DNA of 11,592 nucleotides from Promethearchaeota archaeon (GTDB lineage: Archaea > Asgardarchaeota > Odinarchaeia > Odinarchaeales > JBHLKK01), in assembly GCA_048939465.1 (NCBI GenBank), contig JBHLPL010000062.1, positions 1 to 11,592 on the forward strand. Reading direction: 5' to 3'. The notes beneath the pieces are model-generated. The model had not been told where the DNA came from. It searched no databases and saw only the letters and a list, made by a program, of their open reading frames with translations. A program made the position numbers and the translations under genes. Numbering within the stretch: position 1 is the stretch's first letter; every line of letters begins with the position of its first letter. Shown here piece after piece: positions 1 through 957 of the stretch.

Positions 1-957
1 AGACTCCAACGTGTGGCCTGTGTTGGCAAGTATCGCCCCATCCTTCATCAACTCCATATGCTCCTTACGAATGACATTCTTGTTTCCAGTAGCAGTCAGA
101 AATATGTCTCCGATTTTCGCAGCATCTTTCATCGACATGACTCGGTAGCCGTCCATTGTAGCTCTTAATGCCTTTGTAGGATCAACTTCAGTTACAACGA
201 CATGTGAGCCCATTCCTCTAGCTCTCATTGCAGCTCCCTTGCCGCAGTGTCCATACCCTGCCACCACGAAATTCTTACCTGCAAGGAGAATACTGGTAGC
301 ACGTAAAATGCCGTCAATAGAACTCTGACCGGTGCCGTAAATATTCTTTCGGAGCCTTGGAAACTCTCCAAGACTCAATCGAAATCCCACTTCGTTGGTG
401 CATCGTTGACAGCAACCATTGGATACTTCAGTGCCCCGTCTCGTGCCATAGCTCTCAATCGAATAACTCCCGTGGTGGTCTATACGTGGATAGAACATTG
501 TTCCATCCTCTTCGCAACCACCAACAATTTGGGATAAAAGCTCGGTTCGCTTCGAGTGTACAGCGTTTACCAGATCTCCCCCGTCATCCAAAGTTATTCT
601 AGGTTTATAGTTAAGCACATCATTCACGCTTTCATAATATTCCTCAGTGCTTTCACCTCGCCAAGCATAGACATTGGTACCTTCCAGCGCCAGCGCAGCT
701 GCAACATCGTCTTGCGTTGATAATGGATTCGAAGCGCATAATGCCACATCTGCCCCGCCGGACTTCAAAGTCTGAACTAACACAGCGGTTTCTTTAGTAA
801 CGTGCAGACAGGCGGATATCCGGATTCCTCTGAGGGGTTTCTCCCTTTCGAACCTTTCCTTGATTTTCGCCAGCACTGGCATGTGATGAGTTGCCCACCG
901 AATTCTTTCCCGACCCTGATCTGCTAGAGCCATATCCTTAACTTTATATTCCTTCAA
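1..957 (-). CDS. ahcY: Adenosylhomocysteinase (SAH hydrolase), intron-containing, 3' end runs off the window. Exons: 957..510, 481..378, 345..<1 (last exon may end at 13 if a third intron exists)
   Basis: My translation from TTG at 957 (GAGGTG RBS at 970-965) gives [69 protein letters not shown]. After removing the two inserts it continues [68 protein letters not shown], all hallmark AhcY motifs. It is absent from the ORF track because no stop lies within the window. Confidence 0.97.
346..377 (-). other. 32-nt BHB intron in ahcY (intron 2)
   Basis: Minus strand: TTCG-AT^T-GAGTCTTGGA-gagtt-TCCAAGGCTC-CGAA-AG^A. Central helix TTCG/CGAA is perfect, both bulges are 3 nt and the inner stem is 10 bp. 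Excision gives TTC GAT AAT ATT TAC GGC (FDNIYG). Confidence 0.93.
482..509 (-). other. 28-nt BHB intron in ahcY (intron 1)
   Basis: Minus strand: GGTGGTT-GCGA-AG^A-GGATGGAAC-aat-GTTCTATCC-ACGT-AT^A-GACCACC. Outer exon helix 7 bp, inner helix 9 bp, central helix 3 of 4 paired (A.A mismatch). Excision gives TGC GAA GAG ACC ACC ACG GGA (CEETTTG). Confidence 0.92.

Follow-up and report, generated by a model that had tools for sequence, protein, structure and literature searches.

A probable BHB intron with an imperfect central helix in the ahcY pre-mRNA of an Asgard archaeon

Results

An insert in ahcY

The window analyzed here is the whole stretch of 11,592 nt from Promethearchaeota archaeon (contig JBHLPL010000062.1). 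Positions 482-509 on its minus strand are most probably a BHB intron in the ahcY pre-mRNA that is spliced by EndA and RtcB, a reading to which we give a probability of about 85% on the sequence evidence. The minus strand of positions 1-957 encodes, by ORF and translation, the N-terminal three quarters of an S-adenosylhomocysteine-hydrolase-type enzyme (ahcY). In a genome search this was the sole ahcY-type gene detected and no second copy was found. The unspliced ORF stays open throughout, and its residues 153-202 are unlike any solved homologue. Alignment of this ORF with solved adenosylhomocysteinases gave two aligned blocks and exactly 20 surplus residues, which equal 60 nt, the sum of a 28-nt insert (482-509) and a 32-nt insert (346-377). 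With both inserts removed, this part of ahcY is translated as a 49-residue stretch (letters not shown), and intron-less Asgard orthologues of a sister family align collinearly with the spliced product (293 aa on 293 codons, 74-76% identity). Exon 1 matches PDB adenosylhomocysteinases at residues 2-153. The layout of the gene in the window is as follows.

510..957, minus strand: ahcY exon 1; TTG start at 957-955, with a GAGGTGA Shine-Dalgarno-like motif before the start; ends in GGT GGT TGC GAA G
482..509, minus strand: ahcY intron 1, 28 nt; A + 9-nt arm + AAU loop + 9-nt arm + ACGU + AU
378..481, minus strand: ahcY exon 2, 104 nt; encodes (E) and 34 residues (letters not shown); its frame needs intron 1 removed
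346..377, minus strand: ahcY intron 2, 32 nt; central helix UUCG/CGAA (4/4), inner stem 10-11 bp, outer helix 2 bp
13..345, minus strand: ahcY exon 3; NIYGTGQS ... ANTGH
1..12, minus strand: ahcY intron 3, first 12 nt of 27; the contig end falls inside the intron

Intron 1 is a phase-1 insert within the second Glu codon of the invariant EETTTG motif, and its removal restores both the frame and the motif. Excision of intron 2 joins TTC GAT^AAT ATT (F D N I). The remainder of ahcY is found on contig C24 of G000 (7056-7572), where it has three introns (27, 30 and 22 nt) whose central helices are each fully paired (4/4). Full-length ahcY copies are found on the Logan contigs L213 and L214. Among the best solved matches to ahcY is an S-inosyl-L-homocysteine hydrolase (7r3a).

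Predicted fold of intron 1

The exon flanks and the intron pair with each other through the following segments.

516..523, minus strand: outer helix, 5' arm, U GGU GGU U; made of the third base of Val, both Gly codons and the first base of Cys
473..480, minus strand: outer helix, 3' arm, G ACC ACC A; made of the third base of Glu, the two Thr codons and the first base of the next Thr
512..515, minus strand: 5' strand of the central helix, GCGA; pairs with ACGU at 487-484 as G.U, C-G, G-C and A.A

The outer exon helix (523-516 with 480-473) has 8 bp including one G.U and is paired in the minimum-energy fold. The earlier note had drawn this helix as GGUGGUU/GACCACC at a BHB intron on 482-509 of the minus strand, which was confirmed with one more U-A pair added. 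The 9-bp inner stem (508-500 with 496-488; one of its pairs is G.U, and its loop is AAU at 499-497) and the central helix GCGA/ACGU with three of four pairs lie where they had been placed. The mismatch is A512, the second base of the Glu codon, opposing A487. The two bulges, AGA on the 5' side (511-509) and AUA on the 3' side (483-481), have 3 nt each and lie on opposite strands. If each bulge is cut behind its second base, exactly 28 nt (509-482) come out and the exons meet as GAA G^AG ACC (E E T). The rule of cutting between the second and third bulge bases is taken from published work (PMC2738675, PMC4307357).

RNAfold gave the 59 nt around intron 1 a free energy of -24.6 kcal/mol (z = -4.3), and 1 of 200 shuffled sequences was as stable. 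Both long helices are present in the minimum-energy fold of this region and the central helix is absent from it; the full BHB conformer lies about 1 kcal/mol higher in the folding model. Modeling suggests that the central helix adds nothing alone and that the two long flanks would set the BHB geometry. The BHB definition applied is that of Marck and Grosjean, as restated in a preprint (10.64898/2026.10.13.758758). Under this definition intron 1 has the two 3-nt bulges, its flanking helices of 8 and 9 bp exceed the minimum of at least 2 bp, and the cut product restores EETTTG and the frame. A central helix with four base pairs, either Watson-Crick or G.U, is also part of the definition, and intron 1 was assigned to the "relaxed" BHB class and not to the canonical one because only three of the four central positions pair. 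The values for six introns are listed below; the 3/4 center and the 8-bp exon helix are combined in intron 1 alone.

ahcY intron 1: 28 nt, central pairs 3/4, outer helix 8 bp
ahcY intron 2: 32 nt, central pairs 4/4, outer helix 2 bp
ahcY intron 3: 27 nt, central pairs 4/4, outer helix 1 bp
ahcY intron 4: 30 nt, central pairs 4/4, outer helix 0 bp
ahcY intron 5: 22 nt, central pairs 4/4, outer helix 3 bp
mtaD intron (window 3265-3291): 27 nt, central pairs 4/4, outer helix 0 bp

An AG repeat is found at both borders of intron 1 and allows three deletion registers with the same product. Together with a central helix that is imperfect and missing from the minimum-energy fold, the repeat would be compatible with removal of the insert from the RNA in another register or by a nuclease other than EndA. 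Only register 0 yields the central helix, however, and register +1 pairs one of four positions when worked by hand. All other ahcY introns fit the same rule with 4/4 central helices, and EndA and RtcB are present in the genome. Removal in a different register or by a different nuclease was judged improbable.

Chance level of the BHB geometry

Relaxed BHB geometry is frequent by chance (preprint 10.64898/2026.10.13.758758). Genome-wide counts of BHB shapes whose outer and inner helices reach 5 bp or more were close to those of shuffled controls. The genome-wide scan was dropped as a significance test for this reason, and its high-scoring list was mostly noise. Because random sequence readily yields loose BHB shapes, we did not rely on shape alone but on three independent lines: the coincidence of cut sites and insert bounds, the selection on exon 2 and the retention of the element in relatives. 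Helix lengths like those of intron 1 are reached at only 5-7 places in the genome, and rough arithmetic puts an outer helix of at least 8, an inner helix of at least 9 and at least 3 central pairs at one given place below 1e-7. The cut sites predicted from the fold coincide to the base with the bounds of the insert taken from an independent protein alignment. It is this coincidence of predicted cuts with the alignment-defined insert that exceeds chance.

Selection in the spliced frame

The strongest evidence for splicing is that exon 2 substitutions are synonymous only in the spliced frame. Among three species the synonymous to non-synonymous counts are 5:1, 7:1 and 8:0 if the spliced frame is used, whereas the read-through frame shows the opposite, 0:6, 0:8 and 0:8. 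Exons 1 and 3 also show purifying selection. These counts speak against a dead or decaying ahcY, in which the 28- and 32-nt inserts would be unspliced insertions (e.g., small palindromic mobile DNA) and the gene a pseudogene in the genus. The inserts do destroy invariant catalytic motifs if they are translated, and the read-through ORF is open, so that gene callers accept ahcY. The open frame is nevertheless unremarkable, as that frame is also open in 33% of the intron-less orthologues, and the open read-through ORF was rejected as a selected feature on this count. The lack of a second ahcY copy in the genome argues in the same direction. Both inserts are single-copy with no repeat family (a search for intron 1 as a repeat or mobile family member found no other copy in the genome), and their boundaries fall exactly at the BHB cut positions. 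We consider a pseudogene very improbable. An intron of BHB type whose excision gives GAA GAG ACC, as first proposed from the letters alone, was borne out by the fold, the collinear alignment and the selection in the spliced frame.

In another reading, as in phage T4 gene 60, the ribosome would pass over the insert during translation, by bypassing or by paired frameshifts, and the RNA would stay unspliced. A stable hairpin lies inside the stretch that would be skipped, and 28 + 32 = 60 restores the overall frame. The take-off and landing codons are unmatched, however (GAG before the gap, a UAG triplet before ACC), and the take-off site is not followed by a stop codon. Each of the five inserts in ahcY would require such an event, and the geometry equals EndA cut sites to the base. 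Bypassing is hardly credible here, and splicing of a BHB intron is the reading followed below.

Conservation of intron 1 in relatives

Two other species of the genus (G001 and G002) carry intron 1, as do one JGI metagenome contig (L212) and two independent Logan assemblies (L213 and L214). All of these sequences are close kin from one gain, and the conservation and codon arguments are not drawn from independent samples. The exon arms, both bulges, the central helix including the A.A and the whole 3' arm of the stem are invariant in the five sequence variants. Changes in the 5' arm (G.U to A-U, A-U to G.U and C-G to U.G) keep the pairing in all three cases, and the third stem pair is broken in two lineages (C.U and U.U). 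No true compensatory (double) change was found in the intron 1 stem among the five variants. The variation among these kindred sequences is compatible with structural constraint and does not amount to compensatory covariation.

Codon choice and the exon helix

The outer helix needs Gly as GGU and Thr as ACC or ACU. All sequences with intron 1 read GGT GGT TGC GAA GAG ACC ACC ACG at this site. The outer-helix positions pair 8/8 here vs 2-6/8 in 151 intron-less orthologues, never 7 or 8, and the pattern GGT GGT .. AC[CT] AC[CT] was found in 1 of the 151. The exact codon pattern has a probability of 0.003 under the codon usage of its own genome. The eight codons at the site are identical in three species, as is the case for 5% of such windows of codons. 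Scans of public genomes and metagenomes with exon 1 returned only intron-less homologues of at most 66% identity, which are useful only as a codon-usage background. The earlier suggestion that synonymous codon choice is tied to the exon helix was upheld in part: the 8/8 pairing compared with the 151 orthologues supports it, and a single gain event in one genus limits it. Either order fits this one gain; the helix may have come first and allowed the intron, or it may have been tuned afterwards.

The A.A mismatch

A512, at the second position of a Glu codon, cannot change. A487 lies in the intron and could vary freely, yet all five sequence variants have A there. In a thermodynamic model at 37°C the BHB-competent fraction was 0.10 with A at position 487, 0.04 with C, 0.02 with G and 0.002 with U. 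A U at this position would pair with the bulge base A509 in the model, and the hairpin, lengthened to 11 bp, would then cover the 5' cut site. The A.A may therefore be the best available solution and not a weakness; the folding suggests that it is no defect because the "repairing" U would hide the 5' cut site by bulge pairing. A comparison of cleavage rates between the wild-type and a repaired central helix, as had been proposed, would be confounded, since U in place of A at 487 would, by prediction, draw the 5' bulge into the hairpin. The notion that intron 1 is spliced more slowly than intron 2 found no support. Modeled BHB-competent fractions for intron 1 and intron 2 differ inconsistently, 0.10 vs 0.03 at 37°C and 0.11 vs 0.13-0.17 at 65°C.

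Splicing enzymes

The genome carries two EndA paralogues and two RtcB genes. The alpha-type EndA ORF (L001:1168-1782, 204 aa) aligns end-to-end with the catalytic alpha subunit of A. pernix (3P1Z_B, E = 1.5e-44). The Tyr/His/Lys triad is kept, and K59 aligns with the specificity-loop lysine K44 of A. pernix. The second paralogue (L002:1474-2049, minus strand, 191 aa) has the catalytic His changed to Val with Tyr and Lys kept, and the loop insert is missing. It is closer to M. jannaschii EndA (E = 1.6e-28) than to crenarchaeal beta chains (E about 1e-4). The architecture check asked for by the earlier note thus gave a Crenarchaeota-type catalytic paralogue with the loop lysine and a paralogue lacking the catalytic His. 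The reference class for this combination is the (alpha-beta)2 EndA with the Crenarchaea-specific loop (PMC2724299, PMC5829648); the loop confers broad specificity on EndA and has been reported for Asgard archaea (PMC5829648). The enzyme is likely an (alpha-beta)2 heterotetramer with a Crenarchaeota-type loop, as judged from the two ORFs. It had been argued that the imperfect central helix implies a relaxed-specificity endonuclease. The genome does appear to have the heteromeric, broad-specificity type, and "implies" was too strong a word, as the bulges and flanking helices of intron 1 are intact. One RtcB locus (G000 contig C31:2961-5708) shows an interrupted Pfam match within an open frame of 973 aa, suggestive of an intein or another large insert. 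The genome also gave matches to eukaryote-like actin (445 bits) and ESCRT-II, which support the Asgard assignment.

Other introns and their distribution

The mtaD intron at 3265-3291 (minus strand) is an in-frame insert that contains a stop codon and splits HTHAAMT^LLRGYADD of an MtaD-type deaminase. It has a central helix CATG/CATG and a 5-bp inner stem. A survey of 400 genomes from the phylum found an insert at the EE^TTT site in no genus but that of the window. In other Asgard families BHB inserts are found in ahcY at three nearby but distinct sites, as seen in L028 (G040), L206 (G143), L032, L202 and L204 (G140). The insert of L028, 56 nt long, lies near TTTG (at TTTG-A^TT, 13 nt downstream of the intron 1 position), and inserts of 23-30 nt are found at KWE^FDN, 6 nt upstream of the intron 2 site of the genus. 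The sites are nearby but distinct, which points to repeated gains, and the region of this ahcY motif looks like a hot spot where introns are gained independently. An intron 2 site common to family f19 was considered and rejected, as the introns of f19 and f7 are located at KWE^FDN, 6 nt upstream of FD^N. Many Asgard genomes gave matches that are split at residues 125-136; these were also rejected as introns and are due to an in-frame protein insert of 18 aa. This insert, located just upstream of GG.EETTTG in L006, L029 and L193-L199, mimics a split gene in searches.

Discussion

We propose that pairing of the Gly-Gly with the Thr-Thr codons makes the outer helix and that the intron forms the 9-bp hairpin of the inner helix. 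The two long helices would hold the weak four-position central helix between two 3-nt bulges and in this way compensate for the A.A. A tRNA-splicing endonuclease, most likely (alpha-beta)2, would cut after the second base of each bulge in vivo, and RtcB would join the exons to give GAA GAG ACC. Intron 2 would be removed likewise, and only then would the EETTTG...TKWDFDN core be encoded.

A BHB intron in the cbf5 pre-mRNA was reportedly described by Watanabe in 2002 and by Yoshinari in 2006. Archaeal introns in protein genes that are removed by the tRNA-splicing machinery are documented in print only for cbf5, and a literature search found no report of such introns in Asgard protein genes. The cbf5 introns of Crenarchaeota are unconventional BHBs, cut by hetero-oligomeric EndA between bulge bases 2 and 3 (Yokobori 2009, PMC2738675). 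The ahcY intron resembles them as a short intron (cbf5 16 nt and up) in a protein-coding gene, gained and lost among relatives, and cbf5 introns are likewise usually unconventional in their BHB. Unlike cbf5, ahcY belongs to an Asgard lineage, has five introns in one gene and builds the exon helix from complementary Gly and Thr codons, and its splicing is here a prediction from DNA.

The same type of relaxation is found in tRNA introns. In the experimentally mapped tRNA-Met(CAU-1) of S. tokodaii, mismatches in the central helix are offset by longer flanking helices (PMC4307357), and a BHB class with three of four central pairs has been described for Asgard tRNA genes (preprint 10.64898/2026.10.13.758758). 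Intron 1 shares with the relaxed tRNA introns the central-helix mismatch, the longer flanks and probably the type of enzyme, an (alpha-beta)2 EndA bearing the L1/CSL loop (PMC5829648). It differs in that its host is an mRNA without a tRNA body and that the exon half is bound by an invariant protein motif. Intron 1 shows an invariant protein motif supplying half of a splice-site structure and an imperfect central helix accompanied by unusually long flanking helices.

The HAC1/XBP1 mRNAs of eukaryotes are spliced by IRE1 plus RtcB or Trl1. As proposed for ahcY, this is a non-spliceosomal, protein-catalyzed cut-and-ligate reaction at mRNA stem-loops that changes the reading frame. The nuclease there is IRE1 and not the tRNA endonuclease, and HAC1/XBP1 splicing is stress-regulated; RtcB has been mentioned in connection with XBP-1 splicing (PMC8718801). 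If the ahcY introns are spliced, EndA/RtcB mRNA splicing would be routine in the closest prokaryotic relatives of eukaryotes, and an essential methyl-cycle enzyme would need several splices. Genes with such introns are silently mis-annotated because gene callers read straight through the inserts. Gene callers translate through ahcY introns 1-3 in P0001-P0003 and L212-L214, and in the public proteins P0001-P0003 (374-aa "AdoHcyase") about 50 residues of read-through junk replace the catalytic core.

A wider reading is that the coding sequence and the intron are co-adapted. GGU GGU and ACC ACC would be held for the splice-site helix, the A.A would be kept as the best opener of the 5' bulge, and splicing would possibly be a control point of the methyl cycle and not neutral baggage. 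Such control is conceivable because introns are found in the neighboring SAH-recycling genes ahcY and mtaD and because independent gains recur around the same motifs in other Asgard families. We regard this co-adaptation as doubtful. If it were true, Asgard protein-motif codons would carry a second, RNA-structural code for tRNA-type mRNA splicing.

The MtaD-type deaminase gene is located about 1.1 kb from ahcY with a divergent 362-aa ORF (999-2087, plus strand) in between. A route from SAH to S-inosylhomocysteine is known from methanogens, and ahcY and mtaD may run this route and not classical SAH hydrolysis. ARAGORN predicted no tRNA in the window, and Rfam found one at 5588-5692 (plus strand, 105 nt, 55 bits) with the anticodon-loop sequence CUUAGGA and a 32-nt stretch between the anticodon and T arms.
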